Under the pieces are notes generated by a model. The model saw nothing but the letters and a program-made list of their open reading frames with translations. It was not told the DNA's origin and did not search any database. From IMG/VR virus record IMGVR_UViG_2721755711_000007: a stretch of DNA of 46,655 nt. One strand, 5' to 3'. Shown here piece by piece: positions 1-18,004 of the stretch (position 1 is the first letter of the stretch; the number at the start of each line of letters is the position of its first letter). Origin of the DNA: a virus. Lineage: Duplodnaviria > Heunggongvirae > Uroviricota > Caudoviricetes. The position numbers and the translations under genes are program-made.

Positions 1-1164
1 TTACGCCTTCTTTATATCCTCCATAATTCCAGAGTGGGACATATTTGGGACATTATCACCAAAAATGTCGTCTATTTTCCTCGCATGCTCTGTCAAATGA
101 TTAGGCGCAAGGTGAGCATACCTACGAACCATTTCTATGGACTCCCATCCGCCCATTTCCTGAAGCACTGATAATGGGACGCCTGACTGAATCAGCCAGC
201 TTGCCCAGGTGTGTCTGAGGTCATGGAAACGGAAATCTTCAATTCCTGCACGACGACAAGCTGATAGCCATGATGTCTTGCTGTCGATGCGCATCTTCCT
301 GACCGCAGGCGTTGATGTTCCATCTGCTCGCTTAGCCGCCTTGGTATGTACAAACACCCATTTGTGATGCTTGCCTATTTGATCACGCAACACTTTACAG
401 GCGGTATCGTTCAGCGCCACACCAATGGCGCGGTTTGATTTGCTCTCTTCTGGATTCACCCAGGCAACTCGTCGCTGCATGTCGATTTGTTGCCATTCCA
501 GATTTATGATGTTCGACTTTCTCAGACCAGTTGCCAGCGCAAACTTGACGACAGATTTCAGTGGTTCGGGGCACTCATCAATAAGGCGTTTTGCTTCCTC
601 CTTTTCCAGCCATCTGACTCGCTTGTTTCTGACCGCTGGTATCTTGATGACAGGCGCTTTTTCCAGCCACTTCCAGTCGCGTTCTGCAGCACGGAGAATG
701 GCCTTTATCATGGCAAGATGCTTTGCCTTTGTCTGAGTTGATACTGGCTTTGGTTCATAAACAGGCGGTTCTTTACCTTTCCTGATGGCGGCCTGAACTT
801 TCTGTTTCCATATTTCTTTCGTCTTTCTGTTATGCATTCTGCTTACAGCAGAGTAAATCTTTGCCTCCGAGATATCTTTAAGCCTTATACCCTCAAAATG
901 TTCAAGCCAGAACTCAATCCGGCTTTTATCTGAATCGAGAGATTTTTTATCAGCTTTTTCCTCAAGCCATCTTAGGCAGGCCTCTTCAAAAGTGACATCA
1001 GGTAAATCCCCTAGCTTTTCTACTCGCCAGAGTTCTGCTTTTCGCTTGTCGTGCAACTCCTGAGCTTGCCGCTTGTCCTTTGTGCCAAGAGATTCCTTAA
1101 TTCGTTTCTCGCCCGGGAGCGAATACGAGGCATACCATATTTCATTTCTGCGGAAGAGTGACAT
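1..1164 (-). CDS. intD: Phage tyrosine integrase (DLP12 IntD-like), 387 aa
   Basis: Full ORF on minus strand; C-terminal catalytic region with R...HDLRHTWAS...RRY arrangement typical of tyrosine recombinases; located at prophage edge next to xis. Confidence 0.9.
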
Positions 1165-1391
1165 TTTCTTTCCTCTGTTATGCCATCACCCGCGCTCACC
1201 TGGACAGTATGCAGCGGAGACTGAAGCGCCGCAATGCAGGCTTGCCGTGTTGTGAGGTAAGGAGATTTTGGCTTGGTTGGATCTTTACGTGTTGCCTGTA
1301 GGCGGCCTGTTCGTATCCAGTTGGTGGCGGTTGGTCTGGATATCTTAAGAAACTGACAGGCCTCATCGAGTGTGAGGCTGTATGATTCCAT
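1020..1391 (-). CDS. xis: Excisionase-like DNA-binding protein (AlpA/MerR-type HTH); overlaps int 3' region
   Basis: ORF starting [31 protein letters not shown] (HTH) immediately upstream of int; true stop uncertain because frame stays open into int. Confidence 0.5.
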
Positions 1392-1507
1392 GGTTACCTC
1401 TGCTTTTTGAACGCATGTCACGTAACTTCTTAATGTGTTCTGCCGTTTCGATCTCTTCTGCTATGTGAACCGCCCCGGGTTTCCTGGAGAGTGTTTTATC
1501 TGTGAAC

Positions 1508-2399
1508 TCAGGCTGCCAGATCATCGTTTCCGATGGAAGCATAATAAGCTTTTTCTGCTTCTGCCGGTGGGATATGGCCCAGCCTTTCCAGCAATCGTCG
1601 ATTGTTATACCAGTCCACCCACGTGAGTGTGGACAGCTCCACTTCTGTCCGGTTTTTCCAGCGCTTACGGTGTATTACCTCCGCTTTGTAAAGGCCATTG
1701 ATGCTTCTCCGCCATCGCGTTGTCATACGAGTCACCAGTACTCCCTGTTGATGCCAGTAAGCCGGCTTCCTTAAGCCGCTGCGTGTAGGCCAGCGATACA
1801 TACTGAGAACCTTTATCACTGTGGTGGATTGTGCCGGACGGCCGACGGGCCCACAACGCCTGCTCCAGTGCATCCAGCACGAATGCCGTTTCCATGGATG
1901 ATGAGACCCGCCATCCCACGATGTATCCGGCGAACACATCAATGATGAACGCCACATAAACGAAGCCCTGCCATGTGTTTACCCAGGTAAAATCAGCCAC
2001 CCACAACTGGTCAGGACGTTCTGCCACGAACTGACGGTTTACGCGGTCGCATGCGGCAACGGCTTTCCGGCTGACGGTAGTGCGGACCTTTTTACCCCGG
2101 AGAACACCGGCAAGTCCCATAACCGCCATGAGACGTGCCACAGTGCATCTGGCCACTCTGATACCTTCCCGTAACAACTGACGCCAGACTTTACGCACAC
2201 CGTATACCTGGTGATTTTCATCGTATACGCGCTGTATCTCTTTCTTCAGCCAGTCATCGCGCTGCGCACGGGCACTGCGTTTATCAGGATGATGTCGCTG
2301 TTGCTGACAGTGGTAATACGTTGACGGGGCAATATGCAGTTCGCTGCATACCGGTCCGACCCCGTACTGCTCACGCAGCTTATCCAGCAGTGGCATCAT
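1508..2399 (-). pseudogene. IS3-family transposase OrfB (DDE), split by an apparent +1 frameshift near 1704-1710
   Basis: N-terminal 244 codons in one frame (1665..2399) end YDNAMAEKHQ...; conserved C-terminus INGLYKAEVIHRKRW...WVDWYNNRRLLERLGHIPPAEAE continues in another frame (1508..1957). Confidence 0.6.
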
Positions 2400-2722
2400 T
2401 TTTTCCAGAGGCGGTCGAACTCCGCCTTCGCAAAATAAGCGGAAGCCTGGCGAAGGATATCGTTACTGCGGCGCAGTTCACGATTTTCACGTTCCAGCTC
2501 TTTCAGACGCTGACGTTCAGCGGTGGTGAGCCCACCATCACCGCCCCCGGTATCCCGCTCATGCTGGCGAACCCAGACACGCAGAGTCTCCGGCGTACAG
2601 CCAATTTTTGGGGCAATGGAACAAATTGCCGCCCACTGTGAATCATACTCATCCTGACTTTCCAGAACCATACGAATCGCTCGCTGACGGACTTCGGGGG
2701 AAAAACGAGTATTTTTAGTCAT
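2396..2722 (-). CDS. IS3-family transposase OrfA (HTH), 108 aa
   Basis: [24 protein letters not shown]... with leucine-zipper-like C-terminus; -1 frame partner orfB downstream. Confidence 0.8.
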
Positions 2723-2776
2723 CCTGTTTACCTCTTTCTCAGGGAGTTTAGTCTCCAGGATTCCCGGGACGGTTCA

Positions 2777-2955
2777 ATCCGATCTGCATCAGCTTTATTC
2801 ACAGGTTCAAAGTCATGATTAAAGCGGAACATGCTGGCGATACATGTTCTGCCTTTTCGGATGTAGTGAACTTTGTTGTGGGTAGAACGCAGGATTTTGC
2901 AGGGAGTGCCGTGGTGGTCGACGTACCAGGTGTTAGGAAAAATGATTCTGAACAT
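2777..2955 (-). pseudogene. Small phage ORF truncated at its 3' end by the IS insertion
   Basis: ORF 2728..2955 runs from phage DNA into the IS terminal repeat at 2776. Confidence 0.3.
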
Positions 2956-3011
2956 TTTTACACCTCAGTTGGACGATGTTGAAATTTGCTGCTTTGAGGC
3001 CATCACAGTCC

Positions 3012-3221
3012 CTATTGTTTGTTCTTAAGTTCGATCTCCTCCTGGCAACTCGCACAAGTCCGACAACCCTGAACAGCCAGGCGTCTTCGCTCATCTATCG
3101 GATCGCCACACTCACAACAATGAGTTGCGGATACAGTCTGGTAGTTCAGACGACGCATTTTTATTGCTGTATTGCGCTGTAATTCTTCGATTTCTGATGC
3201 TGAATCAATGATGTCTGCCAT
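3012..3221 (-). CDS. TraR/DksA-family C4 zinc-finger protein, 69 aa
   Basis: CCECGDPI...CRTCASC four-cysteine motif in a 69-aa ORF, typical of phage TraR-like proteins. Confidence 0.7.
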   Translation of the reverse strand: MADIIDSASEIEELQRNTAIKMRRLNYQTVSATHCCECGDPIDERRRLAVQGCRTCASCQEEIELKNKQ

Positions 3222-3271
3222 CTTTCATTAATCCCTGAATTGTTGGTTAATACGCTTGAGGGTAAATGCGA

Positions 3272-3298
3272 ATAATAAAAAAGGAGCCTGTAGCTCCC
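3272..3298 (-). terminator. Putative rho-independent terminator (minus strand)
   Basis: GGAGC-loop-GCTCC hairpin followed on the minus strand by a TTTTTTATTATT run. Confidence 0.4.
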
Positions 3299-3319
3299 TG
3301 ATGATTTTGCTTTTCATGT

Positions 3320-3535
3320 TTACCGTTCCTTAAAGACGCCGTTCAACATGCCGATCGCCAGGCTTAAATGAGTCGGTGTGAATCCCATCAGCGTTACCGT
3401 TTCGCGGTGCTTCTTTAGTACGCTACGGCAAATGTCATCGACGTTTTTATCCGGAAAATGCTGTCTGGCTTTTTTGATTTCAGAATTAGCCTGACGGGCA
3501 ATGCTGCGAAGGGCGTTTTCTTGCTGAGGTGTCAT
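3320..3535 (-). CDS. Hypothetical small phage protein, 71 aa
   Basis: ORF in tightly packed leftward operon between exo and xis. Confidence 0.55.
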   Translation of the reverse strand: MTPQQENALRSIARQANSEIKKARQHFPDKNVDDICRSVLKKHRETVTLMGFTPTHLSLAIGMLNGVFKER

Positions 3536-3611
3536 TGAACAAGCCCCATGTCGGCAAGCATAAGCTCACAGAATATGAAGCCCGCTGCCAGAAAAATGCA
3601 TTCAGTGGTTG

Positions 3612-3803
3612 TCATACCTGGTCTCTCTCATCTGCTTCTGCTTTCGCCACCATCATTTCCAGCTTTTGTGAAAGGGATGTGGCTAACGTATGAAATTCTT
3701 CGTCTGTTTCTACTGGTATTGGCACAAACCTGACTCCAATTTGAGCAAGGCTATGTGCCATCTCAATACTCGTTCTTAACTCAACAGGAGATGCTTTGTG
3801 CAT
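3612..3803 (-). CDS. Hypothetical small phage protein, 63 aa
   Basis: ORF in leftward early operon. Confidence 0.5.
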   Translation of the reverse strand: MHKASPVELRTSIEMAHSLAQIGVRFVPIPVETDEEFHTLATSLSQKLEMMVAKAEADERDQV

Positions 3804-3964
3804 ACCGCCTCCCGTTTATTATTTATCTTCTCAGCCAGCCGCTGTGCTTTCAGTGGATTTCTGATAACAGAAAGGCCGGGAAATACCCAGCCTCGCTTTG
3901 TAACGGAGTAGACGAAAGTGATCGCGCCTACCCGGATATTATCGTGAGGATGCGTCATCGCCAT
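3776..3964 (-). CDS. Hypothetical small phage protein, 62 aa
   Basis: ORF immediately downstream of exo, overlapping neighbours by a few codons as is usual in this operon. Confidence 0.4.
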
Positions 3965-4635
3965 TGCTCCCCAAATACAAAACCAATTTCAGCCAGTGCC
4001 TCGTCCATTTTTTCGATGAACTCCGGCACCATCTCGTCAAAACTCGCCATGTACTTTTCATTCCGCTCAATCACGACATAATGCAGGCCTTCACGCTTCA
4101 TGCGCGGGTCATAGTTGGCAAAGTACCAGGCATCTTTTCGCGTCACCCACATGCTGTACTGCACCTGGGCCATGTAAGCCGATTTTATTGCCTCGAAACC
4201 ACCGAGCCGGAATTTCATGAAATCCCGGGAGGTAAACGGGCATTTCAGTTCAAGGCCGTTGCCGTCACTGCATAAACCATCGGGGGAGCAGGCGGTGCGC
4301 ATACTTTCGTCGCGATAGATGATCGGGGATTCAGTAATATTCACGCCGGAAGTGAATTCAAACAGGGTTCTGGCGTCGTTCTCGTACTGTTTTCCCCAGG
4401 CCAGCGCCTTAGCATTAACTTCCGGAGCCACACCGGTGCAAACCTCAGCCAGCAGGGTGTGGAAGTAGGACATTTTCATGTCAGGCCACTTCTTTCCTGA
4501 GCGGGGCTTTGCTATCACGTTGTGAACTTCTGAAGCGGTGATGACGCCGAGCCGTAATTTGTGCCATGCATCATCCCCCTGTTCGACAGCTCTCACGTCG
4601 ATCCCGGTACGCTGCAGGATAATGTCCGGTATCAT
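3955..4635 (-). CDS. exo: Lambda exonuclease (Red alpha), 226 aa
   Basis: Translation near-identical to lambda Exo as I recall it ([36 protein letters not shown]...). Confidence 0.95.
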
Positions 4636-5417
4636 GCTGCCACCTTCTGCTCAGTGGCTTTCTGTTTCAGGAATCCAAGAGCTTTCACTGCTTCGGCCTG
4701 TGTCAGTTCTGACGATGCGTGAATGTCGCGGCGAAATATCTGGGAACAGAGCGGCAATAAGTCGTCATCCCATGTTTTATCCAGGGCGATCAGCAGAGTG
4801 TTAATCTCCTGCATGGTTTCATCGTTAACCGGAGTGATGTCGCGTTCTGGCTGACGTTCTGCAGTGTATGCAGTATTTTCGACAATGCGCTCGGCTTCAT
4901 CCTTGTCATAGATACCAGCAAATCCGAAGGCCAGACGGGCACACTGAATCATGGCTTTATGCCGTAACATCCGTTTGGGATGCGACTGCCACGGCCCCGT
5001 GATTTCTCTGCCTTCGCGGGTTTTGAATGGTTCGCGGCGGCATTCATCCATCCATTCGGTAACGCAGATCGGATGATTACGGTCCTTGCGGTAAATCCGG
5101 CATGTACAGGATTCATTGTCCTGCTCAAAGTCCATGCCATCAAACTGCTGGTTTTCATTGATGATGCGGGACCAGCCATCAACGCCCACCACCGGAACAA
5201 TGCCGTTCTGCTTATCAGGGAAGGCGTAAATTTCTTTCGTCCACGGATTAAGGCCGTACTGGTTGGCGACGATCAGCAATGCGATGAACTGCGCATCGCT
5301 GGCATCACCTTTAAATGCCGTCTGGCGAAGAGTGGTGATCAGTTCCTGTGGGTCGACAGAATCCATGCCGACACGTTCAGCCAGCTTCCCTGCCAGCGTT
5401 GCGAGTGCTGTACTCAT
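4632..5417 (-). CDS. bet: Recombination protein Bet (Red beta), 261 aa
   Basis: Translation matches lambda Bet ([44 protein letters not shown]...). Confidence 0.95.
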
Positions 5418-5422
5418 CCGTT

Positions 5423-5719
5423 TTATACCTCTGAATCAATATCAACCTGGTGGTGAGCAATGGTTTCAACCATGTACTGGATGTGTTCTGCCATGCGCTC
5501 CTGAAACTCAACATCGTCATCAAACGCACGGGTAATGGCTTTTTTGCTGGCCCCGTGGCGTTGCAAATGATCGATGCATAGCGATTCAAACAGGTGCTGG
5601 GGCAGGCCTTTTTCCATGTCGTCTGCCAGTTCTGCCTCTTTCTCTTCACGGGCGATCTGCTGGTAGTGACGCGCCCAGCTCTGAGCCTCAAGACGATCCT
5701 GAATGTAATAAGCGTTCAT
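5423..5719 (-). CDS. gam: Gam, RecBCD inhibitor (98-aa form)
   Basis: Translation matches lambda Gam short form ([21 protein letters not shown]...[10 protein letters not shown]). Confidence 0.9.
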
Positions 5720-5794
5720 GGCTGACCTCCTGAAAATGGCTGTGAAAATATCGCCCGCGAAATGCCAGGCTGATTAGGAAAACAGGAAAGGGGA

Positions 5795-6085
5795 TTAGTG
5801 ATTCAGGCCGTTACCGCGTCCGTCGAGAAAAACTTCCACGAGCAAATCACGGGTATAAGTGCGCTCGATGCCGCGATGCAGATAAAGCCGTCCGCGTAAA
5901 TTAGCTGATGCAGTCCAGGTACCATCTTTGTGTTTGACCAGCATTCCTGGCATGACCGCACCTCGATTAACGGTCTGCGTTCCATAATGTTGATGAACCA
6001 TAAAAACTCCTGCCCGTAAGCTGGGCTGCTGAACATATAGAGACTTCTGCGCGTATTCAGGCGGTGGATGGCCGCCGGTTGTCAT
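5795..6085 (-). CDS. Hypothetical protein, 96 aa; first gene downstream of putative pL
   Basis: ORF with GAGG ribosome-binding site about 11 nt upstream; no recognisable N-like arginine-rich motif. Confidence 0.5.
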
Positions 6086-6253
6086 AACTAAGCCGCCTCG
6101 TTGAAGCGACTAAGGTATGAAATGTTGAGTTAATTTCAGCTGGTCACACCGACGTTCACGCGTCCGTTTCACCCCTCGCACTCCCCGAAGCCTGCTGAAA
6201 TTCAAACTGCGGATCTAAGCGGTCATCGCAACGGTGAATCAGGTAGTTGCCGT

Positions 6254-6350
6254 ATCGTTGTGTTGTTGCGATGAACTTATTTAAAACTATAGTTGTTTTA
6301 TCGTCAACAACAAAAGTTGTTTTATTGGTTGTTTTAGATATAACTGGTTG
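6254..6350 (-). promoter_or_regulatory. Putative OL/pL operator-promoter region
   Basis: Repeated GGTTGTT / AACAACC half-site motifs shared with the cI-cro intergenic region, including the palindrome ACAACAAAAGTTGT. Confidence 0.4.
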
Positions 6351-6448
6351 TATTTAGGATGGATTTATTTTGTGACTTGAATCGCATAGCGATAACTGAA
6401 GCGAGGTTATGGTGGTTTTTTTAACGGTGTGTGTGATGAGGGGAGGGC

Positions 6449-6480
6449 AAAAGAAAACCCGGCACGGTGACCGGGATTCT
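6449..6480 (-). terminator. Putative rho-independent terminator downstream of the repressor gene
   Basis: CCCGG-loop-CCGGG hairpin followed on the minus strand by TTTTCTTTTG. Confidence 0.35.
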
Positions 6481-6596
6481 TACGCCGTTAGGTAAAGATA
6501 TTATTGCGGTGGCTTAATATTACTACCTAGAGCAAAGATAGGAATTAGTTCTTTACTGAATGAGCACAATGCCCAGTTGATAATTTTTAATTGGTA

Positions 6597-7286
6597 CTAC
6601 CCATGCTTCCTATATGTCTGCGGCATGCTCCCAATAACCTTACCGAAGATGAACACCCGGTTCATCTCGTCTTTCTCGATCGGGTCCCACGGTGAGTAGC
6701 TTTTGTTATCAGAGATGACCAGCAGCTTATCCTTCATCATTTGCAGGCGCTTTACATGGGCTGTGTCGTCGTACAGAAACGCATAGATACCATCACCGTC
6801 GAAAGATTTAACTGTGATATCAACGAACAGCAGATCACCTGGTTCGATCGTTCCTGACATGCTGTCACCACGCACGTTAATGATGCGGATATTTTCCGCC
6901 TTCCTACCATCGAACATGTGACGAGCATCGTCAAACGAGTACTCAACCGAGCGTAGAACTTCTACAAACTCACGGTTGATGACTCCCGGCCCAGCACTGA
7001 CTTCTATATCAAGAACGTCAATCTTGAAGTATTTGGAATGGCTGACAGTTGATTGTATTGGTTGCACTGTACTGTCTGACATATTTCCAACGCCAGAAGA
7101 TAACCATTCTGCGCGCACACCCAAAGCGTTCGCGATCTCCACGATTTTAGTTGTTTGATTAGCTTTCCCTGTTTCGATTTTCTGAATAGCAGCCTGGCTA
7201 ACCCCGACCAAATCCCCAAGCGCCTTTTGTGTAAGGCCTCGCGCTAATCTGGCTTCTTTAAGTCTTTCTGAGAGTGTTGTTTTCAT
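6597..7286 (-). CDS. cI-like prophage repressor (XRE-type HTH plus S24 LexA-like peptidase domain)
   Basis: N-terminal HTH (LTQKALGDLVGVSQAAIQKIETGK) and C-terminal autocleavage domain with GDSM and K; start taken at MKTTLSERLKEA (ATG 7284-7286). Confidence 0.85.
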   Translation of the reverse strand: MKTTLSERLKEARLARGLTQKALGDLVGVSQAAIQKIETGKANQTTKIVEIANALGVRAEWLSSGVGNMSDSTVQPIQSTVSHSKYFKIDVLDIEVSAGPGVINREFVEVLRSVEYSFDDARHMFDGRKAENIRIINVRGDSMSGTIEPGDLLFVDITVKSFDGDGIYAFLYDDTAHVKRLQMMKDKLLVISDNKSYSPWDPIEKDEMNRVFIFGKVIGSMPQTYRKHG

Positions 7287-7390
7287 AGTCCAAATGTACA
7301 ACCAAGGTTTTATTCCATCAAACGAAAATGGTTGTTGACTAAAAACAACCATAGTTTTAATCTTGATTCAAATTAACCACGGAGGTTGTT
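7287..7390. promoter_or_regulatory. OR region: divergent pRM (minus; -35 TTGATG 7316-7321, -10 TACATT 7293-7298) and pR (plus; -35 TTGACT 7335-7340, -10 TAATCT 7358-7363) with 25-bp operator palindrome ATGGTTGTTgactaaaAACAACCAT (7328-7352)
   Basis: Hexamers and 17-bp spacers read directly; pRM -10 lies 6 nt from the cI ATG, implying a leaderless cI mRNA as in lambda. Confidence 0.55.
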
Positions 7391-7621
7391 ATGAACCCAG
7401 CTATCAAAACAGCGATCAATATCGTTGGTTCACAAAAGAAACTGGGCGCTGCTTGCGAAGTTTCACAGCAGGCCGTCTATAAGTGGCTTCACAACAAAGC
7501 AAAGGTATCCCCTGAACATGTCGGCAGCATTGTTACGGCTACTGGTGGAGTAGTGAAGGCATACCAGATTCGCCCGGATCTTCCGAAGTTGTTTCCACAC
7601 ACCGAAAAGAACGCAGCTTAA
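7391..7621 (+). CDS. Cro-like HTH regulator (YdaS-like), 76 aa
   Basis: Small HTH ORF divergent from repressor gene, GGAGG ribosome-binding site at 7381-7385. Confidence 0.8.
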   Translation: MNPAIKTAINIVGSQKKLGAACEVSQQAVYKWLHNKAKVSPEHVGSIVTATGGVVKAYQIRPDLPKLFPHTEKNAA

Positions 7622-7633
7622 ATTTCCATTTCA

Positions 7634-7646
7634 CGCTCTTTAACAA
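7634..7646 (+). promoter_or_regulatory. boxA-like element (CGCTCTTTAACAA) in nutR position
   Basis: Matches boxA consensus CGCTCTT(T)A and the rrn boxA TGCTCTTTAACAA; 13 nt after cro stop; no obvious boxB hairpin follows. Confidence 0.45.
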
Positions 7647-7690
7647 TAAGCAATCAACTTAACAGTCAATTCAAACTAAAGGAGTCAATT

Positions 7691-8230
7691 ATGCAACCAC
7701 TTACATACCAACAGACTAGCGGATTTAGCCCGACTGCGGTGATAAATCGTTCTCAAACAAAACAGGTGCCAGGCCACGAAAAAATCCGTGATGCCGTCCG
7801 CGCCTGGTCGGCTGTAGATAATCAGGATGTCGTTGCCACACTCATTGTGAATGAGTATCGGGAGCAGGGCGGCGGCACCATCGATTTCCCTGATGATGTC
7901 AGCCGTGCACGCCAGAAGCTGTTCCGCTTCCTCGATAACAAATTCGATTCTGAAAAATACCGAAATAACGTGCGTGAACTGACCCCGGCAATTCTGGCGG
8001 TACTACCGCTGGAATATCGCGGTTACCTGGTTGAGCAGGATAGCTTCATGGCTAGGTTGGCTGAAATGGAAAAGGAACTCAGTGAGGCAAAACAGGCTGT
8101 CATTCTCAACGCACCACGCCACCAGAAACTGAAGGAAATTAGTGAAGGTATTGTGTCGATGTTTCGTGTGGACCCAGATCTGGCTGGTCCATTGATGGCG
8201 ATGGTTACTACCATGCTGGGGGCGATATGA
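7691..8230 (+). CDS. YdaT/CII-like regulatory protein, 179 aa
   Basis: Occupies cII position; similar in motif pattern to Rac YdaT as I recall it; AAGGAG ribosome-binding site. Confidence 0.6.
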   Translation: MQPLTYQQTSGFSPTAVINRSQTKQVPGHEKIRDAVRAWSAVDNQDVVATLIVNEYREQGGGTIDFPDDVSRARQKLFRFLDNKFDSEKYRNNVRELTPAILAVLPLEYRGYLVEQDSFMARLAEMEKELSEAKQAVILNAPRHQKLKEISEGIVSMFRVDPDLAGPLMAMVTTMLGAI

Positions 8231-8316
8231 CAGGTTCAGAAATGGCGAAAGCCGGTCTGCTGGAACAGAACCGACTTTCAGGTGCAAATCGTAACACACT
8301 CATTGCGGGAGGAATT

Positions 8317-9246
8317 ATGGCAAACACTGCTGAGATATTCAATTTTCCAGTGCCGGATGCGGCACAAAAGGAGCCGCGCGTGGCAGATCTCGATGATGGT
8401 TATACGCGCATTGCAAATGAGTTGCTGGAAGCTGTGATGCTGGCCGGATTAACACAGCACCAGCTTCTGGTCTTTCTGGCTGTCATGCGCAAAACATATG
8501 GCTTTAATAAAAAACTGGATTGGGTTAGCAACGAGCAACTTTCCGAATTAACCGGGATATTGCCGCACAAGTGTTCTGCTGCAAAAAGTGTTCTGGTAAA
8601 GCGTGGGATTTTTATTCAGAGCGGGCGGAATACCGGCATTAATAATGTGGTCAGTGAATGGTCAACATTACCCGAATCAGGTAAGAAAAATAAAGTTTAC
8701 CTGAAAGAGGTAAATTTACCTGAATCAGGTAAAAAAAGTTTACCCAAATCAGGTAAAGGCGTTTACCCGAATCAGGTAAACACAAAAGACAAACTAACAA
8801 AAGACAATATAAAACCTTTTTCGTCCGAGAATTCTGGCGAATCCTCTGACCAACCAGAAAACGATCTTCCTGTGGTGAAACCGGATGCTGCAATTCAGAG
8901 CGGCAGCAAGTGGGGGACAGCAGAAGACCTGACCGCCGCAGAGTGGATGTTTGACATGGTGAAGACCATCGCGCCATCAGCCAGAAAACCGAATTTTGCA
9001 GGGTGGGCTAACGATATCCGCCTGATGCGTGAACGTGACGGACGTAACCACCGCGACATGTGCGTGCTGTTCCGCTGGGCATGCCAGGACAACTTCTGGT
9101 CCGGTAACGTGCTAAGTCCGGCCAAACTCCGCGACAAGTGGACCCAACTCGAAATCAACCGTAACAAGCAACAGGCAGGCGTGACAGCTAGCAAACCAAA
9201 ACTCGACCTGACAAACACAGACTGGATTTACGGGGTGGATCTATGA
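8317..9246 (+). CDS. O: Replication initiation protein O (lambda-type replisome organiser)
   Basis: N-terminal domain VADLDDGY...LRKTYG resembles lambda O; ori iterons inside the gene; start taken at MANTAEIFNF after GGAGG. Confidence 0.85.
   Translation: MANTAEIFNFPVPDAAQKEPRVADLDDGYTRIANELLEAVMLAGLTQHQLLVFLAVMRKTYGFNKKLDWVSNEQLSELTGILPHKCSAAKSVLVKRGIFIQSGRNTGINNVVSEWSTLPESGKKNKVYLKEVNLPESGKKSLPKSGKGVYPNQVNTKDKLTKDNIKPFSSENSGESSDQPENDLPVVKPDAAIQSGSKWGTAEDLTAAEWMFDMVKTIAPSARKPNFAGWANDIRLMRERDGRNHRDMCVLFRWACQDNFWSGNVLSPAKLRDKWTQLEINRNKQQAGVTASKPKLDLTNTDWIYGVDL
8668..8823 (+). repeat. Replication origin: five about 19-bp iterons (TTACCYRAATCAGGTAA, internal dyad TTACC/GGTAA) followed by an A/T-rich stretch
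   Basis: Direct repeats read at about 8668, 8697, 8715, 8739 and 8762, each encoding an (L)PESGK peptide repeat in O; A/T-rich 8781-8823. Confidence 0.75.
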
Positions 9247-9944
9247 AAAACATCGCCGCACAGATGATTAACTTTGACCGTGAGCAGATGCGTCGGATCG
9301 CCAACAACATGCCGGAACAGTACGACGAAAAGCCGCAGGTACAGCAGGTAGCGCAGATAATCAACGGTGTATTCAGCCAGTTACTGGCAACTTTCCCGGC
9401 GAGCCTGGCTAATCGTGACCAGAACGAACTGAACGAAATCCGCCGCCAGTGGGTTCTGGCTTTCCGGGAAAACGGGATCACCACGATGGAACAGGTGAGC
9501 GCCGGAATGCGTGTTGCCCGTCGGCAGAATAGACCATTTCTGCCATCACCCGGGCAGTTTGTTGCATGGTGCCGGGAAGAAGCATCCGTTACCGCCGGGC
9601 TGCCAAACGTCAGCGAGCTGGTTGATATGGTTTACGAGTATTGCCGGAAGCGTGGTCTGTATCCGGATGCAGAGTCTTATCCGTGGAAATCAAACGCGCA
9701 CTACTGGCTGGTTACCAACCTGTATCAGAACATGCGGGCCAATGCGTTGACTGACGCGGAATTACGGCGCAAGGCTGCCGATGAACTGTCCTGTATGACC
9801 GCGCGAATTAACCGTGGTGAGGCGATACCTGAACCAGTAAAACAACTTCCTGTCATGGGCGGTAGACCTCTAAATCGTGCACAGGCTCTGGCGAAGATCG
9901 CAGAAATCAAAGCTAAGTTCGGACTGAAAGGAGCAAGTGTATGA
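9243..9944 (+). CDS. P: Replication protein P (DnaB helicase loader), 233 aa
   Basis: Translation near-identical to lambda P (MKNIAAQMxNFDREQMRRIANNMPEQYDEKPQVQQVAQIINGV...). Confidence 0.95.
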   Translation: MKNIAAQMINFDREQMRRIANNMPEQYDEKPQVQQVAQIINGVFSQLLATFPASLANRDQNELNEIRRQWVLAFRENGITTMEQVSAGMRVARRQNRPFLPSPGQFVAWCREEASVTAGLPNVSELVDMVYEYCRKRGLYPDAESYPWKSNAHYWLVTNLYQNMRANALTDAELRRKAADELSCMTARINRGEAIPEPVKQLPVMGGRPLNRAQALAKIAEIKAKFGLKGASV

Positions 9945-10243
9945 CGGGCAAAGAGGCAATTATTCATTACCTGGGGACGCATAAGAGCTTCTGTGCACAG
10001 GACGTTGCCGCGGTAACAGGCGCAACCGTAACCAGCATAAATCAGGCTGCGGCTAAAATGGCGCGGGCAGGAATCCTGGTCGTTGATGGTAAGGTCTGGC
10101 GAACGGTGTATTACCGGTTCGCTACCAGAGAAGAACGGGAAGGAAAGGTGAGCACGAATCTGATTTTTAAGGAGTGTCGCCAGAGTGCCGCGATGAAACG
10201 GGTACTGAGGGTATATAAAAGAACATCAATGGGAACACAATGA
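9941..10243 (+). CDS. ren: Ren-like protein, 100 aa
   Basis: Translation matches lambda Ren over most of its length, with a divergent C-terminus at the junction with the low-GC island. Confidence 0.8.
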   Translation: MTGKEAIIHYLGTHKSFCAQDVAAVTGATVTSINQAAAKMARAGILVVDGKVWRTVYYRFATREEREGKVSTNLIFKECRQSAAMKRVLRVYKRTSMGTQ

Positions 10244-10310
10244 TGAAACAGGTGAGTTGAGTTCAAACTGTAGTACAATTCTCTCCAGTTTGAACAGGAA
10301 AGAATATGCT

Positions 10311-10643
10311 ATGAACCCTTATATTTATCTTGGTGGTGCAATACTTGCAGAGGTCATTGGTACAACCTTAATGAAGTTTTCAGAAGGTTTTACACGGTTA
10401 TGGCCATCTGTTGGTACAATTATTTGTTATTGTGCATCATTCTGGTTATTAGCTCAGACGCTGGCTTATATTCCTACAGGGATTGCTTATGCTATCTGGT
10501 CAGGAGTCGGTATTGTCCTGATTAGCTTACTGTCATGGGGATTTTTCGGCCAACGGCTGGACCTGCCAGCCATTATAGGCATGATGTTGATTTGTGCCGG
10601 TGTGTTGGTTATTAATTTATTGTCACGAAGCACACCACATTAA
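10311..10643 (+). CDS. emrE: SMR-family multidrug efflux transporter EmrE, 110 aa
   Basis: Four-TM 110-aa protein MNPYIYLGGAILAEVIGTTLMKFSEGF... matching EmrE with the conserved membrane-embedded Glu. Confidence 0.9.
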   Translation: MNPYIYLGGAILAEVIGTTLMKFSEGFTRLWPSVGTIICYCASFWLLAQTLAYIPTGIAYAIWSGVGIVLISLLSWGFFGQRLDLPAIIGMMLICAGVLVINLLSRSTPH

Positions 10644-10673
10644 AATAATTTGTTTCTAAACGACTAAAATATG

Positions 10674-10714
10674 GAGGCTCTTATATTTATATGAGCCTCG
10701 TTTTATGCTTTTTG
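10674..10714 (+). terminator. Putative rho-independent terminator after emrE
   Basis: GAGGCTC-12 nt loop-GAGCCTC hairpin followed by GTTTTATGCTTTTTG. Confidence 0.5.
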
Positions 10715-10897
10715 TTAATGTCTTTATTTTTTATGTATTCTTTTGTGCTTTCAAGATTATGGCGTAAGAAAATTGCAATACGATTATTGTTGTATATTCA
10801 AGATAATGTGACCTTAATTGTCTTTTTAAATAAAAATTAAACAAAAATTATATCCCACCACTAAGGTTTATAAAAGCATACGTTAGCAGGTGTCACC

Positions 10898-12424
10898 ATG
10901 AAAAAAGCCATAGCATATATGCGATTTTCATCACCAGGTCAGATGTCTGGCGACTCATTAAACCGACAGAGAAGACTTATTGCTGAATGGTTAAAGGTAA
11001 ATAGTGATTATTATCTTGATACCATAACATATGAAGATTTAGGATTAAGTGCATTCAAAGGAAAGCATGCACAATCAGGAGCTTTTTCGGAATTTTTAGA
11101 TGCTATAGAGCATGGTTATATATTGCCAGGAACTACATTGTTAGTTGAAAGTCTGGACAGACTTTCAAGAGAAAAAGTCGGTGAAGCGATTGAACGTCTG
11201 AAATTGATTTTGAATCACGGTATTGATGTTATAACTCTTTGCGACAATACAGTCTATAATATTGACTCTTTGAATGAGCCATATTCATTAATAAAAGCCA
11301 TACTTATAGCACAAAGGGCAAATGAAGAAAGCGAGATAAAGTCAAGTCGGGTTAAATTATCATGGAAGAAAAAACGGCAGGATGCACTGGAATCAGGTAC
11401 GATTATGACGGCGTCTTGTCCGAGATGGCTCTCCTTAGATGACAAAAGAACGGCTTTTGTTCCAGACCCCGACAGGGTGAAAACTATTGAGCTAATTTTT
11501 AAACTCAGGATGGAAAGGCGCTCATTGAATGCAATAGCCAAGTATTTAAATGATCATGCTGTAAAGAATTTCTCAGGAAAAGAAAGTGCATGGGGACCTT
11601 CTGTAATTGAAAAATTATTAGCGAATAAAGCTCTGATAGGTATATGCGTACCTTCATATCGTGCAAGAGGGAAAGGGATAAGTGAAATCGCTGGCTATTA
11701 TCCCAGAGTCATATCAGATGATTTGTTTTACGCTGTACAGGAAATTCGGTTGGCACCTTTTGGTATTAGCAATAGTAGCAAGAATCCTATGCTAATAAAT
11801 CTACTTCGAACAGTTATGAAGTGTGAGGCTTGTGGTAATACCATGATTGTTCATGCGGTATCTGGAAGTTTGCATGGCTATTATGTTTGTCCGATGAGAA
11901 GATTACATCGATGTGACAGGCCATCAATAAAAAGAGATTTGGTTGATTATAATATCATTAATGAATTGCTTTTTAATTGTAGCAAAATTCAACCAGTTGA
12001 AAACAAGAAAGATGCTAATGAAACTTTAGAGTTAAAAATTATTGAGCTTCAGATGAAAATTAATAATTTAATCGTTGCATTGTCTGTCGCGCCTGAAGTT
12101 ACCGCTATAGCAGAGAAAATAAGACTATTAGATAAGGAATTACGAAGGGCTTCGGTATCATTGAAAACTTTGAAGAGTAAAGGTGTAAATTCATTCAGTG
12201 ATTTTTATGCTATTGACTTAACCAGTAAAAATGGACGAGAGTTATGCCGTACACTTGCCTATAAAACATTCGAAAAAATCATAATTAATACGGATAATAA
12301 AACCTGTGATATCTATTTTATGAATGGCATTGTTTTTAAACACTATCCTTTAATGAAAGTAATATCCGCCCAGCAGGCGATAAGTGCTCTCAAATATATG
12401 GTTGATGGTGAGATTTATTTCTAA
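10898..12424 (+). CDS. ybcK: Large serine recombinase-family protein (YbcK-like), 508 aa
   Basis: N-terminal resolvase catalytic motifs (YMRFSSPGQ with Ser, LDRLSR), recombinase domain and Cys-rich zinc-ribbon (CEACG...CPMRRLHRC). Confidence 0.85.
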   Translation: MKKAIAYMRFSSPGQMSGDSLNRQRRLIAEWLKVNSDYYLDTITYEDLGLSAFKGKHAQSGAFSEFLDAIEHGYILPGTTLLVESLDRLSREKVGEAIERLKLILNHGIDVITLCDNTVYNIDSLNEPYSLIKAILIAQRANEESEIKSSRVKLSWKKKRQDALESGTIMTASCPRWLSLDDKRTAFVPDPDRVKTIELIFKLRMERRSLNAIAKYLNDHAVKNFSGKESAWGPSVIEKLLANKALIGICVPSYRARGKGISEIAGYYPRVISDDLFYAVQEIRLAPFGISNSSKNPMLINLLRTVMKCEACGNTMIVHAVSGSLHGYYVCPMRRLHRCDRPSIKRDLVDYNIINELLFNCSKIQPVENKKDANETLELKIIELQMKINNLIVALSVAPEVTAIAEKIRLLDKELRRASVSLKTLKSKGVNSFSDFYAIDLTSKNGRELCRTLAYKTFEKIIINTDNKTCDIYFMNGIVFKHYPLMKVISAQQAISALKYMVDGEIYF

Positions 12425-12805
12425 ATAATGATCTCGGATTTTAAGTTATGCTATGGTGATAAAGTGCAAGACAGAATTAATTATCTTTGACGAAACTTAA
12501 TGGGTAATTACTTTGTTTGCTCCCACAAGCGAGTTTTGTACGGCTGTATTGGGGTAGTAAATGAGCTATACAATCTTAATCATTTGTTAGGTGAGAACTC
12601 TTGGTCGCAGATTCAAATACTGAAAATACGTGACAAATTATTATGAGCAAAATGGTGTATGTCACGTATTTTGAATGGTAGGTTAAAAAATAACACCGAC
12701 TTTCGTAGGTATTACTAATAATAAAGCAGAGTTTTTAGATAGTATCAATGTGCTTTGTGTATATTGTGGCAAATAATTGGGTTGGGGGTACAATTGTGAT
12801 TGCTT

Positions 12806-12835
12806 TTGCATGAACATTGCGCCTTTATGCATAAT
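12806..12835 (+). promoter_or_regulatory. Putative sigma70 promoter for ybcL (-35 TTGCAT, 18-bp spacer, -10 CATAAT)
   Basis: Hexamers read in the A/T-rich intergenic region about 55 nt upstream of the ybcL ATG. Confidence 0.3.
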
Positions 12836-12888
12836 GAGATAAAGGAATATCAAATAAAATAACGATAGGTCATAACAAAGAGGTTTTT

Positions 12889-13440
12889 ATGAAAACACTT
12901 ATCGTTTCAACTGTATTGGCATTCATAACATTTTCTGCGCAGGCTGCAGCATTTCAGGTCACTAGTAATGAAATAAAAACAGGAGAGCAACTTACAACGT
13001 CTCATGTCTTTTCTGGATTTGGGTGTGAAGGTGGTAATACATCGCCCTCATTAACCTGGTCTGGTGTTCCTGAAGGTACCAAAAGCTTTGCCGTAACTGT
13101 ATATGATCCAGATGCACCTACAGGCAGTGGTTGGTGGCATTGGACTGTTGTTAATATTCCAGCAACAGTAACATATTTGCCCGTTGATGCAGGGAGACGT
13201 GATGGAACAAAACTGCCGACTGGTGCTGTTCAAGGCCGAAATGATTTTGGCTATGCTGGGTTTGGTGGCGCATGTCCTCCTAAAGGAGATAAACCACATC
13301 ATTACCAGTTTAAAGTATGGGCTCTAAAAACTGAAAAGATTCCTGTAGATTCTAACTCCAGCGGAGCGTTAGTTGGTTATATGCTTAATGCTAATAAAAT
13401 CGCAACCGCTGAGATAACACCAGTTTATGAGATAAAGTAG
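12889..13440 (+). CDS. ybcL: Periplasmic PEBP/RKIP-family protein (YbcL-like) with signal peptide, 183 aa
   Basis: N-terminal signal peptide MKTLIVSTVLAFITFSAQA; PEBP-type motifs (DPDAPT...WxHW, HHY). Confidence 0.85.
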   Translation: MKTLIVSTVLAFITFSAQAAAFQVTSNEIKTGEQLTTSHVFSGFGCEGGNTSPSLTWSGVPEGTKSFAVTVYDPDAPTGSGWWHWTVVNIPATVTYLPVDAGRRDGTKLPTGAVQGRNDFGYAGFGGACPPKGDKPHHYQFKVWALKTEKIPVDSNSSGALVGYMLNANKIATAEITPVYEIK

Positions 13441-13449
13441 GGTGAGAGT

Positions 13450-14247
13450 ATGCTGGCAAGAGGTAAGACTAACTTAAAGATCGAAGAAATACGGATGCAT
13501 AAACATCATGAGATTCATAGGGTTAAGCCTCTTATGCCAGCTTTGTGTCGTATCCGTCAGGGAAAGAAAGTTATCAATTGGGAGACGCATACTTTAACTG
13601 TTGATAATAATCAAATAATATTATTTCCTTGTGGTTATGAATTTTATATTGAGAATTATCCTGAAGCAGGGCTTTATCTTGCAGAAATGCTTTACTTACC
13701 CATTGATTTAATTGAGAGTTTCCAAAAACTTTATACGGTAACTGATCAAATACGTAACAAAACAAGTTTCTTTTTACCTCAGAATCCTGAGTTAATATAT
13801 TGTTGGGAGCAACTAAAAACATCTGTTTCCCGAGGCTTCTCAACTAAAATTCAGGAGCACTTAGCAATGGGCGTTCTACTTTCGTTAGGAGTGAATCATG
13901 TTAATCATTTACTTTTATCATATAGTAAACAATCATTGATAAGTCGTTGTTATAACCTGCTGCTATCCGAACCCGGCACAAAATGGACAGCAAACAAGGT
14001 TGCTCGATATCTCTACATTTCTGTTTCTACATTACATCGCCGTCTAGCAAGCGAGGGGGTAAGTTTCCAAAGTATACTGGACGATGTGAGGTTAAATAAT
14101 GCGTTGTCTGCTATACAAACGACGGTAAAACCTATAAGCGAGATTGCCAGAGAAAATGGTTATAAGTGTCCTTCTCGTTTTACTGAAAGATTTCATAATC
14201 GTTTTAATATAACACCAAGAGAGATAAGAAAAGCTTCCAGAGAGTAA
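13450..14247 (+). CDS. ybcM: AraC-family transcriptional regulator (YbcM-like), 265 aa
   Basis: C-terminal AraC-type HTH region; 10 nt downstream of ybcL. Confidence 0.8.
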
Positions 14248-14311
14248 AAGTGTTTTAAGAAGGAGCAATTCTATCGATTTTGATTTTGGGAAATCAACAC
14301 GGCATAATTAT

Positions 14312-14345
14312 GTCACCGGAGCCTGAACAACTCCGGTGACTTCTG
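14312..14345 (+). terminator. Putative terminator hairpin after ybcM (10-bp stem GTCACCGGAG/CTCCGGTGAC)
   Basis: Perfect 10-bp inverted repeat with 9-nt loop followed by a weak TTCT tract. Confidence 0.4.
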
Positions 14346-14363
14346 CGCTAAACGGGGACGTTT

Positions 14364-14465
14364 ATGCGCACATACAATCCAAACTCTCTTCTCCCTTCAC
14401 AGATGCAGAAATGCACCTGCAATTCTTTGCATCTAGCGTTTGACCTCTGCGGAGGTGAAGCGTGA
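14364..14465 (+). CDS. ylcH: Small protein YlcH-like, 33 aa
   Basis: 33-codon [36 protein letters not shown] ending in a TGA that overlaps the ybcN start. Confidence 0.45.
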
Positions 14466-14917
14466 ACCTCTCACAAGACGGCATCAAATTACATCGCGGC
14501 AACTTCACCGCTATCGGTCGGCAGATCCAGCCTTATCTGGAGGAGGGCAAATGCTTTCGCATGGTGCTTAAACCGTGGCGTGAGAAACGCAGTCTTTCCC
14601 AGAATGCACTCAGCCACATGTGGTACAGCGAAATCAGTGAATACCTCATCAGCAGGGGTAAAACGTTCGCCACTCCAGCTTGGGTAAAAGATGCTCTCAA
14701 ACACACATATCTCGGTTATGAAACCAAAGACCTGGTTGATGTCGTAACCGGTGATATCACCACTATCCAGTCGTTACGCCATACCTCCGATCTTGATACC
14801 GGAGAGATGTATGTCTTCCTGTGTAAGGTTGAAGCCTGGGCGGTGAATATTGGCTGCCACCTGACTATTCCGCAGAGCTGCGAGTTCCAGCTGCTCCGCG
14901 ACAAGCAGGAGGCGTAA
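14462..14917 (+). CDS. ybcN: NinB-family recombination protein (YbcN-like), 151 aa, GTG start
   Basis: Similar motif pattern to lambda NinB/Orf ([11 protein letters not shown]); synteny with ninE-rusA. Confidence 0.85.
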
Positions 14918-15087
14918 TGGCTACACCGCTTATTCGTGTCATGAACGGACACATCTACAGAGTATCAAATCGTCGTAAGCGTAAGCCTGAGCTGAAGCCA
15001 TCCGAAATACCAACACTGCTCGGATATACCGCTAGCCTGGTTGATAAAAAATGGTTGCGACTGGCAGCAAGGAGGAATCATGGCTGA
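14917..15087 (+). CDS. ninE: NinE-like protein, 56 aa
   Basis: ATG overlaps ybcN stop (TAATG); basic small protein resembling lambda NinE (K/R-rich, W-L-R-x-x-A-R). Confidence 0.7.
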   Translation: MATPLIRVMNGHIYRVSNRRKRKPELKPSEIPTLLGYTASLVDKKWLRLAARRNHG

Positions 15088-15370
15088 TTTGAGAAAAGCA
15101 GCGCGTGGTCGGGAATGCCAGGTAAGAATCCCTGGCGTATGTAATGGCAATTCTGAAACGTCTGTACTGGCACATATCCGGCTGGCTGGATTGTGCGGTA
15201 CCGGTATCAAACCGCCAGACCTGATTGCCACCATTGCATGTTCTGCCTGCCACGACGAAATCGACCGCCGCACACATTTTGTCGATGCTGCATATGCAAA
15301 AGAATGCGCGCTGGAAGGTATGGCGAGAACACAGGTTATCTGGCTGAAAGAGGGGGTTATTAAGGCGTGA
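15080..15370 (+). CDS. ybcO: YbcO-like putative nuclease with Cys-rich motif, 96 aa
   Basis: [23 protein letters not shown]...CSACHDE; start overlaps ninE stop. Confidence 0.8.
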
Positions 15371-15729
15371 ATACCTACAGTATCACATTACCCTGGCCTC
15401 CGAGCAATAATCGCTATTACCGCCATAATCGCGGGCGCACGCACGTCAGTGCAGAGGGGCAGGCATACCGCGATAACGTCGCCCGAATCATTAAAAACGC
15501 AATGCTGGATATCGGCCTGGCTATGCCTGTGAAAATCCGCATTGAGTGCCACATGCCGGATCGCCGTCGCCGTGACCTGGATAATCTGCAAAAAGCCGCT
15601 TTTGACGCACTCACCAAAGCAGGTTTCTGGCTGGATGATGCTCAGGTCGTTGATTACCGCGTTGTGAAGATGCCTGTTACCAAAGGTGGGAGGCTGGAAC
15701 TGACCATCACCGAAATGGGGAATGAATGA
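15367..15729 (+). CDS. rusA: Holliday-junction resolvase RusA, 120 aa
   Basis: [18 protein letters not shown]... with conserved acidic catalytic residues ([11 protein letters not shown]). Confidence 0.9.
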
Positions 15730-15866
15730 TGTTTGAGTTTTATATGGCAGAACTTCTTCGCCACCGCTGGGGGCATCTGCGCTTATATCGTTTCCCCGGT
15801 TCTGTTTTGACCGATTACCGAATACTGAAGAATTACGCCAAAACCCTGACAGGAGCAGGAGTATGA
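15726..15866 (+). CDS. ylcG: Small protein YlcG-like, 46 aa
   Basis: 46-codon ORF overlapping rusA stop, in operon position before Q. Confidence 0.55.
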
Positions 15867-15951
15867 AGTCAGAGATAACAATCAACTAATACTGTTTTGT
15901 TGATTTTTGCTTGTAATTGGCGTTCTGGTCTGATTTTTGTGGAGTAAGTTG

Positions 15952-16335
15952 ATGCGTGATATTCAGATGGTTCTTGAGCGTTGGGGAGCGTGGGCGGCTA
16001 ATAATCATGAAGATGTGACCTGGTCGTCCATTGCCGCCGGTTTTAAGGGATTAATTACTTCAAAAGTAAAATCTCGCCCGCAATGTTGTGACGATGACGC
16101 GATGATTATTTGCGGGTGCATGGCCCGTCTGAAAAAGAACAACAGCGATTTGCACGATTTATTAGTAGATTATTATGTAGTCGGTATGACATTCATGTCA
16201 CTGGCAGGTAAGCATTGCTGCTCTGATGGTTATATCGGGAAAAGGTTACAGAAGGCTGAGGGCATAATTGAAGGGATGTTAATGGCATTAGATATCCGGT
16301 TAGAGATGGATATCGTTGTTAATAACTCTAATTAA
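15952..16335 (+). CDS. quuD: Late-gene antiterminator Q (phage 82/21-type), 127 aa
   Basis: [20 protein letters not shown]... with Cys cluster; last gene of nin operon. Confidence 0.85.
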
Positions 16336-16369
16336 TATGCCAATTGTTTACTAAAAATTATTAAAAATG

Positions 16370-16500
16370 GGGCGTTGCAACGCCCCCAAAAATAAAGGGT
16401 AATATATAACAGAAGGTTTATATAGTTAGAAGCAAGGTTGTGCTCCTAAAGGAAGTGGCTTGAGGGAGCCACTTATATGTTGGGGAGGCAAAGCCTCCCG
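16370..16500. terminator. Cluster of three GC-rich inverted repeats between convergent quuD and nmpC (likely bidirectional terminators)
   Basis: GGGGCGTTGCAACGCCCC (16370-16387, U-run on minus side), GTGGCTtgagggAGCCAC (16456-16473), GGGAGGCaaaGCCTCCC (16484-16500). Confidence 0.45.
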
Positions 16501-16523
16501 CAACATATCTTTTAGTAATCAAA

Positions 16524-17976: not shown

Positions 17977-18004
17977 TTTACGTACGTAAAAAATTGGTTA
18001 TGCT
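17977..18004 (+). promoter_or_regulatory. Candidate late promoter PR' (-35 TTTACG, 16-bp spacer, -10 TATGCT)
   Basis: Hexamers read about 30 nt upstream of the tR'-like hairpin and about 190 nt upstream of the holin gene. Confidence 0.3.

Follow-up and report, generated by a model that had tools for sequence, protein, structure and literature searches.

The IS629-like insertion sequence that lies upstream of the putative xis gene in a 46,655-nucleotide phage sequence (IMG/VR record IMGVR_UViG_2721755711_000007; the whole stretch is called the window below) is best explained as a simple IS insertion, now a non-autonomous copy with a private frameshift, that carries beside one of its ends a G which is likely a by-product of integration. 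Taken as a whole, we regard this explanation as highly probable. Comparison with IS-free relatives shows a simple insertion into CT-ATC-CG, within a lambda-like prophage, with a 3-bp duplication, by which no phage DNA was lost and in which no second IS copy took part.

Boundaries, coding regions, and identity of the element

The features of the element are as follows.

1466..2776, minus strand: IS629-like insertion sequence (by nucleotide identity to 1310-bp copies)
1466..1490, no strand assigned: terminal inverted repeat at the orfB-distal end (IRR), TGAACCGCCCCGGGTTTCCTGGAGA
2752..2776, no strand assigned: terminal inverted repeat at the orfA-proximal end (IRL), reverse complement TGAACCGTCCCGGGAATCCTGGAGA
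2396..2722, minus strand: orfA, 108 aa, HTH_Tnp_1, intact (Pfam)
2325..2441, minus strand: predicted programmed -1 frameshift region, consisting of an A6 run at 2399-2404 and an ALIL pseudoknot (Rfam RF01497)
1665..2399, minus strand: orfB 5' part, 244 codons, HTH_21 and rve, ending ...YDNAMAE-KHQWPLQSGGNTP and a stop (Pfam)
1508..about 1703, minus strand: orfB 3' remnant in a shifted frame, SINGLYKAEVIH...GNDDLAA and a stop, rve_2/rve_3 (Pfam)
1704..1705, minus strand: site of a 1-nt insertion, TT on the plus strand where intact copies have a single T (alignment)

The IS629-like element, of the IS3 family, occupies positions 1466..2776 with its transposase on the minus strand and is 1311 bp long, 1 nt longer than intact copies (1310 bp). 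The range 1463..2779 given in the initial annotation comprises the IS together with both of its 3-nt flanks. The clear terminal repeats described there were found as a 25-nt pair at 1466-1490 and 2752-2776 that matches at 22 of 25 positions (the expectation for shuffled sequence is 0), and the IRL sequence is identical in the intact copies L001 and L002. The ends of the element read TGAACC...GGTTCA, with the 5'-TG...CA-3' termini of the IS3 family. The coding region has the two consecutive ORFs typical of that family, an orfA with a helix-turn-helix and an orfB with an rve (DDE) core, and the NCBIfam model for IS3 family transposases (NF033516, cut-off 160) scored the truncated OrfB at 249 bits and the repaired OrfB at 311. 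The Rfam model of the ALIL pseudoknot (RF01497) was matched over its full length, 1-117, with 121.5 bits compared with a gathering score of 50, and the same frameshift feature is annotated by PGAP in intact relatives. From these sequence elements, a programmed -1 frameshift between orfA and orfB is predicted.

Complete E. coli genomes contain about 31,000 places that match the element, and the best full-length matches are 1310 bp long. The closest copy, with 99.6% identity over 1310 bp, is carried by plasmid pIncFIB of E. coli PapRG-04-4, and further copies match at 98.9% identity; copies that PGAP labels only as "IS3 family transposase" have 97.9-99.6% identity to the element. The IS3-family ORFs and a 94.2% identity to the annotated IS629 of phage JLK-2012 uphold the description of the element as IS629-like. 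As a rule of thumb, ISfinder treats elements as isoforms when their identity is above about 95%. Judged by its 94% identity (94.2% to the O55/O157 IS629), the element appears to be a sister variant of the O157-type IS629 and not an O157 isoform; by descent it belongs to the IS629/IS1203 group of the IS3 family, as a pseudogene copy.

A private frameshift in orfB

The orfB reading frame of the window copy had been described as split by a 1-nt insertion near 1704-1710, and alignment with four intact 1310-bp copies placed the change exactly there: an extra T at 1704/1705 (plus strand) is the sole indel. In the intact copies the coding-strand sequence is ...GAC AAC GCG ATG GCG GAG AGC ATC AAT GGC... 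(YDNAMAESING), and the window copy continues GAG AAG CAT CAA TGG to a stop 11 codons further on, in agreement with the earlier expectation of GAG AAG C where an intact copy would read GAG AGC. In the intact 1310-bp copies orfB is continuous over 296 codons, so the break is not a feature of the reference element, a check that the initial annotation had itself proposed. OrfB of the window copy is cut after codon 233, the frame being lost directly past the Glu of YDNAMAE. Motifs known from the IS3 family and from retroviral integrases lead us to assign the Glu of the conserved YDNAxxE motif as the catalytic E of the DDE triad. The shift puts the final 52 residues out of frame in OrfB and in the OrfAB fusion alike, the Lys at E+7 among them, and the continuous 296-codon orfB with D, D, E, and K/R that characterizes an intact transposase is therefore lacking from the window copy.

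The extra T was present in 0 of the 225 IS copies in the loci retrieved, and in complete E. coli genomes it was present at 0 of the 11,922 places that match; the +1 frameshift in orfB is private to the window copy. Besides the frameshift, the window element differs from its closest relative by four substitutions. We infer that this copy is incapable of producing active transposase. It could nevertheless be mobilized by transposase supplied from another copy, since its two ends, its orfA, and its frameshift pseudoknot are all intact.

Insertion into an intact DUF4222 gene

The insertion site is described by the following features.

1463..1465, no strand assigned: left copy of the 3-bp target duplication, ATG (target ATC), with the G at 1465 abutting IRR
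2777..2779, no strand assigned: right copy of the target duplication, ATC, unaltered
2777..2955, minus strand: 5' part of the DUF4222 ORF, its first 59 codons; the frame now continues into the IS and stops at 2728
1363..1465, minus strand: 3' part of the DUF4222 ORF (reconstruction, Pfam)

The 3-bp flanks do differ, the left one being ATG and the right one ATC, as the initial annotation reported and as can be read directly from the window. The annotation ascribed this inequality to an adjacent deletion mediated by the IS or to recombination between two IS copies, either of which would have removed lambda genes between xis and the small ORFs near exo. The unequal left and right triplets themselves favor such an event, and rearrangements of IS629 are common, because many copies are without a duplication: about 40% of the IS629-type copies in phage contigs have no recognizable one, and duplications, of 3-4 bp, are seen at only 21 of 47 O157 sites (PMC3271280). 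A real case is known from a relative: in strain HCP4S3_I4 an argU prophage related to this one has an IS copy at a nearby point, where it borders on a partial DUF1317 gene next to exo.

The empty site argues strongly against this origin for the window copy. Three IS-free phages, PhiR34_1, Turner, and 2G7b (L003, L004, and L005), are almost identical to the window on either side, are colinear with it across the site, and have an uninterrupted CTGCT-ATC-CGATC in which the two flanks are adjacent, with an overlap of 2-3 nt; the longer context of the site in these phages is ...TCTTCTGCT ATC CGATCTGC... (also given as ...GATCTCTTCTGCT ATC CGATCTGCATC...). Positions 1..1464 of the window are 100% identical to PhiR34_1, without a difference over 1,464 nt, and positions 2777..38660 are 99.785% identical. 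The left and right alignments overlap on PhiR34_1 by 2 nt (AT), and the net gain relative to the empty site is exactly the IS plus 3 nt, two of the three gained nucleotides being identical between the flanks (ATG and ATC). The flanks are also contiguous, at an uninterrupted site, in thousands of E. coli genomes, and in another strain an IS at the same site is bordered by a perfect ATC/ATC. Because the flanks are contiguous in IS-free phages, nothing was deleted, and the comparison with IS-free relatives that had been suggested as a means of defining a deletion found none. As a possible partner for recombination, a second IS629-type copy was sought in the window; none was present, the end motif occurring only at 1466 and 2776. 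The empty-site comparison thus refutes the view that the locus is the product of an adjacent deletion or of recombination between IS copies, to which we now assign almost no credence.

The gene content around the insertion leads to the same reading. With and without the IS, the gene order is DUF4222, TraR/DksA zinc finger, orf61, orf63 (DUF1382), exo, bet, and gam. The IS-free phages share this order exactly, which removes the argument that lambda genes are missing between xis and the exo-proximal ORFs; those genes are absent because this phage lineage does not include them. The small ORF at 2777..2955, thought to have been truncated by the IS end, is instead split, its 3' part lying at 1363..1465 on the other side of the element. 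When the two parts are rejoined, the resulting 92-aa protein gives a Pfam match to DUF4222 (E = 1.9e-19), and the intact DUF4222 ORF is annotated in PhiR34_1, Turner, and 2G7b. The locus should accordingly be annotated as an IS that splits a DUF4222 gene and not as a scar of deletion or recombination.

Origin of the G at position 1465

We asked whether the altered base of the left triplet was present in the target before insertion. The G allele at the uninterrupted site had 0 exact matches among about 2,247-2,249 E. coli genome records, and in IMG/VR it was found in 0 contigs compared with at least 120 that carry the C allele. A standing polymorphism of the target was rejected on these grounds, and the absence of G from empty sites means that the change arose with or after the insertion. 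In a search for sibling copies, neither form of the left junction, with C or with G at position 1465, had a match in IMG/VR, GTDB species genomes, or JGI metagenomes, and neither the truncated OrfB nor the DUF4222-IS fusion ORF had an identical protein on record.

The mismatch might be due to a later event, in which an originally perfect ATC/ATC suffered an ordinary C-to-G point mutation in its left copy. This is the simplest account, needing one event only; decay is evident elsewhere in the copy (in the frameshift and the four substitutions noted above), and within the interrupted frame of DUF4222, a gene that is dead anyway, the substitution is silent (CGG to CGC). The local rate of change, however, is low: the adjoining 1,464 nt are without a difference from PhiR34_1, the right flank diverges by about 0.2%, and divergence of this order predicts a change in one of the six duplication bases in about 1% of copies. 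Moreover, three other independent simple insertions, described below, are altered at the same one of the six positions, a coincidence with a probability of about (1/6)^3 if changes were uniform. We regard a later mutation as possible and, all told, rather doubtful. On its own, a C-to-G substitution after insertion would leave an identical sequence, and the origin of the G is to that extent unprovable from sequence alone.

An error of sequencing or assembly was also considered, by which the extra T, the G, or both would be artifacts and the real copy would be 1310 bp with ATC/ATC. Both the T and the G are unique among thousands of copies and sites, as errors would be. Against this, the insertion of the T lengthens a run of one T, which is atypical of homopolymer errors, a C-to-G miscall precisely at the IS boundary would be a coincidence, and like boundary changes occur in three unrelated assemblies. 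We consider such an error very unlikely.

The pIncFIB copy of PapRG-04-4, whose ATG beside its IRL would supply an ATG spacer, was examined as a donor and set aside: we treat the agreement as coincidental, at odds of about 3%, and not as evidence. Five positions separate that copy from the window IS, and it has no duplication of its own.

A recurrent change at the IRR-abutting base

The flanks of related elements were surveyed in every IMG/VR contig that contains this IRR sequence, a sample of 352 stretches in which 114 distinct full-length copies were classified as follows.

Perfect 3-bp duplication: 64 of 114 copies
Perfect 4-bp duplication: 3 of 114 copies
One triplet mismatch: 12 of 114 copies
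Two or three mismatches: 35 of 114 copies

Empty sites were sought for each of the one-mismatch copies. Three of these copies proved to be simple insertions with contiguous empty sites: in L051 the target CTT became CTG|IS|CTT, in L264 the target ATC became ATG|IS|ATC, and in L423 the target GGG, within GGGGG, became GGT|IS|GGG. In L278 either the middle base of the duplication was altered or a 5-bp duplication was formed in a G run. L305, L448, and L459 had a match for one flank only, and L014, L018, L069, L091, and L447 were rejected as simple insertions, their flanks coming from unrelated contexts.

In L051, L264, L423, and the window, the altered base of the duplication is always the one that abuts IRR, and no case of an altered base at the IRL end was confirmed among the one-mismatch copies. 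The four affected IS copies are different variants, and the three that were aligned differ from one another at 41-67 positions in each pairwise comparison. This recurrence of a single-base change on the IRR side, in four cases, suggests a footprint made at insertion. Since three other insertions are altered at the same IRR-abutting position and local divergence is low, an origin at integration is favored, and with moderate confidence we consider that the ATG/ATC mismatch is most likely a by-product of integration and not of rearrangement.

At the L264 site an IS-free ATG allele exists too (L401), so that this copy may have had another history. The recurrence of the IRR-side change amounts to four cases in all. 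A specificity for G as the altered base was rejected: G is the base in each of the first three cases, but L264 came from a scan that required G, and a four-base scan gave the T case L423.

A possible source of the foreign base

IS3-family elements transpose via a minicircle that has a short spacer, derived from the donor flank, between the two IS ends, and the cleaved 3' ends (3'-OH) attack the target symmetrically (PMC3299598). On such a copy-out/paste-in route, cleavage of the minicircle junction would leave the non-transferred strands with the donor-flank spacer as 5' tails. If one tail nucleotide were ligated at the IRR end after two of the three gap bases had been filled, one daughter duplex would end up with a duplication of effectively 2 bp and a single foreign base, at an unchanged total length. 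All four cases fit this outcome. The same outcome would be produced by a 1-nt shift of cleavage together with a shift of the target attack at the IRR end, and the four junctions cannot distinguish this alternative from carry-over of the spacer.

We tentatively propose, with somewhat less than even confidence, that in about 1 of 20 simple insertions IS629-type elements leave a previously unremarked footprint, in which the IRR-abutting base is replaced by a foreign nucleotide that probably comes from the minicircle spacer. If this is true, imperfect duplications would record the donor site and not later mutation, and the ATG/ATC of the window would be one such footprint. The pathways of IS911, IS3, and IS2 resemble the proposed one in passing from a figure-of-eight to a minicircle with a 2-4 bp spacer and then to symmetric integration, and it is this spacer that is proposed as the source of the foreign base. 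Unlike those steps, retention of a spacer base in the product is absent from PMC3299598 and would be an addition to the pathway suggested by the four genomic cases.

Unequal flanking triplets are usually taken as a sign of rearrangement; here, and in three other IS629-type insertions, they accompany plain insertion. Should the odd base be a by-product of integration, surveys that score copies with "no duplication" as recombinants would slightly overestimate rearrangements, and the base itself would be informative about the donor site.

Relation to known IS629 elements and insertion at the same base in E. coli 2010C_5028

The element shares with the IS629/IS1203/IS3411 group of E. coli and Shigella the 1310-bp architecture with TG...CA ends and 25-nt inverted repeats, the arrangement of orfA (HTH) and orfB (rve/DDE) with a -1 frameshift at A6 and an ALIL pseudoknot, an apparent 3-bp target duplication, and a preference for prophage DNA. 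It departs from the group in its length of 1311 bp, its +1 frameshift, and the one altered base of its duplication. Similarly, the IS629 copies of lambdoid and Stx prophages (JLK-2012, Stx2a_WGPS6, and 2010C_5028) occupy the dispensable early-left stretch that separates int from the recombination genes and lie in the orientation of leftward transcription, that of 2010C_5028 at exactly the same base as the window copy; unlike the window copy, they are intact at 1310 bp and have perfect duplications (GTA/GTA in JLK-2012 and ATC/ATC in 2010C_5028). The JLK-2012 copy, considered as a same-site insertion, was found to sit at a different site. The window locus is thus an ordinary, decaying, non-autonomous IS629-like copy of an already known kind in a common location.

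In E. coli 2010C_5028, a related prophage at argU/fimZ is interrupted at this very base by an intact 1310-bp IS that has the orientation of the window copy (ATC|IS|ATC). This IS differs from that of the window at 33 positions (2.5%), and the flanks differ by about 0.1-0.5%. The two copies could descend from one ancestral insertion, the IS having diverged by gene conversion, or could represent two independent hits. Descent from a single insertion is suggested by the shared base, orientation, and argU prophage type, and flanks that differ by about 0.1-0.5% around an IS that differs by 2.5% are as expected with homogenization of IS copies within a genome. The site, on the other hand, suits the target preference of IS629-type elements, and their insertions are spread over at least six points in related prophages. 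The preference is weakly palindromic, with a C at -2 and a G at +2 of the triplet in the 64 copies with perfect duplications, and the window site CT-ATC-CG agrees with it. Between int and exo, related prophages have IS629-type copies at no fewer than five other points; every one of these copies lies in that same orientation and is bordered by a perfect duplication of 3 or 4 bp. Since the site fits the preference and insertions are scattered, independent hits on one base are plausible, and we lean slightly away from a single ancestral insertion.

Prophage context and the putative xis gene

Two further genes on the minus strand lie to the left of the element.

1020..1391, minus strand: putative xis, with an excisionase-type HTH at the N terminus (Pfam HTH_17)
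1..1164, minus strand: tyrosine integrase of the IntD/DLP12 type

The putative xis scored 27.7 bits with TIGR01764, just below the cut-off of 28.8, and the IS ends 74 nt upstream of its start codon. Related prophages are located at the argU tRNA, adjoining fimZ. By separating int and xis from leftward pL transcription, the IS had been expected to impair excision. The IS is oriented in the direction of leftward transcription, and a scan found no terminator-like site on the leftward strand within it. Terminator-like hairpins on the leftward path are present at 3299-3281, 3894-3872, and 6475-6458, in stretches that are colinear with the IS-free phages. In lambda, antiterminated leftward transcription reads through IS polarity; between kil and cI of this phage, no N-like ORF of at least 50 aa was found. 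The claim that the IS near xis impairs excision is a weak one.

We also considered whether the G at 1465 creates a promoter for xis. A -35-like TTCACA is present at the junction, but a suitably spaced -10 is not, and this possibility was rejected; the scan found no minus-strand promoter-like site.

A surer cause of a prophage defect lies elsewhere in the window. A second IS3-family element, 1258 bp in length and flanked by a perfect GCA duplication, is inserted at 38661..39918 within the tail-tip gene J. As gene J is interrupted, the prophage is very likely unable to form infectious particles, regardless of the state of xis. Apart from the two ISs, the window is colinear with PhiR34_1, at 99.8-100% identity over 1..38660 and at 97.8% over 39919..42939, and the side-tail-fibre end, at about 42940-46655, is divergent.

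IS629-type insertions and their target sites

In the six related prophages (L006, L007, L008, L130, L131, and L132), IS629-type elements were found at no fewer than six distinct points between int and exo, all in the orientation of int and exo, and most of these insertions were flanked by perfect duplications of 3 to 4 bp. The element of L130 (strain HCP4S3_I4) adjoins a partial DUF1317 gene beside exo. On the basis of 64 IMG/VR loci with perfect duplications, the target preference of IS629-type elements is weakly palindromic, with C two bases 5' of the duplicated triplet in 34 of the 64 loci and G two bases 3' of it in 32. Two further IS629-type copies of 1311 bp (L116 and L292) were identified, both with perfect duplications; the insertion at 1704/1705 of the window copy is absent from both, and their length must therefore reflect a different 1-nt indel. 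The insertion in L264 (3442..4751 of that locus) reads ATG|IS|ATC, and its IS-free relatives carry ATC (L346) or ATG (L401) at the site. Either the site has a standing polymorphism, or an insertion of this kind was excised and left a footprint.

The xis candidate and the early-left leader

The following features of the left part of the window were examined.

1020..1391, minus strand, xis candidate of 123 aa
6086..6596, leader of ∼510 nt between a kil-like ORF and cI
6475-6458, minus strand, terminator-like hairpin within the leader

The xis candidate overlaps int by 145 nt, and excisionase HTH models cover its first ∼35 residues only. At the corresponding position in relatives, the PGAP annotation shows a 66-nt pseudogene stub and nothing more. 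The sequence of the candidate is also present in PhiR34_1 and Turner, both of which are plaque-forming phages. No ORF of at least 50 aa was found within the leader, and we conclude that an N-like gene is absent between the kil-like ORF and cI.

A second IS element in gene J and the tail-fibre end

38661..39918, second IS element, IS3 family, 1258 bp, ends TGTAGTGG...CCACTACA

By reference to PhiR34_1, the tail-tip gene J is split by this element, which is flanked by a perfect 3-bp duplication, GCA (38658-38660 and 39919-39921), and has many copies of 100% identity in E. coli. An Rfam match to isrC (38729-38851) falls within it. Farther right, the side-tail-fibre region (42940..45391) is mostly unrelated to that of PhiR34_1, with short patches only at 87 to 97% identity. 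The final 1.26 kb of the window, encoding tail-fibre assembly and a Pin-type recombinase, is 92% identical to PhiR34_1. Such mosaicism is typical of the host-range end. Close to this tail-fibre assembly and pin recombinase end, the Rfam family IS009 (RNA) is matched over its full length at 45735..45933 (218 bits).
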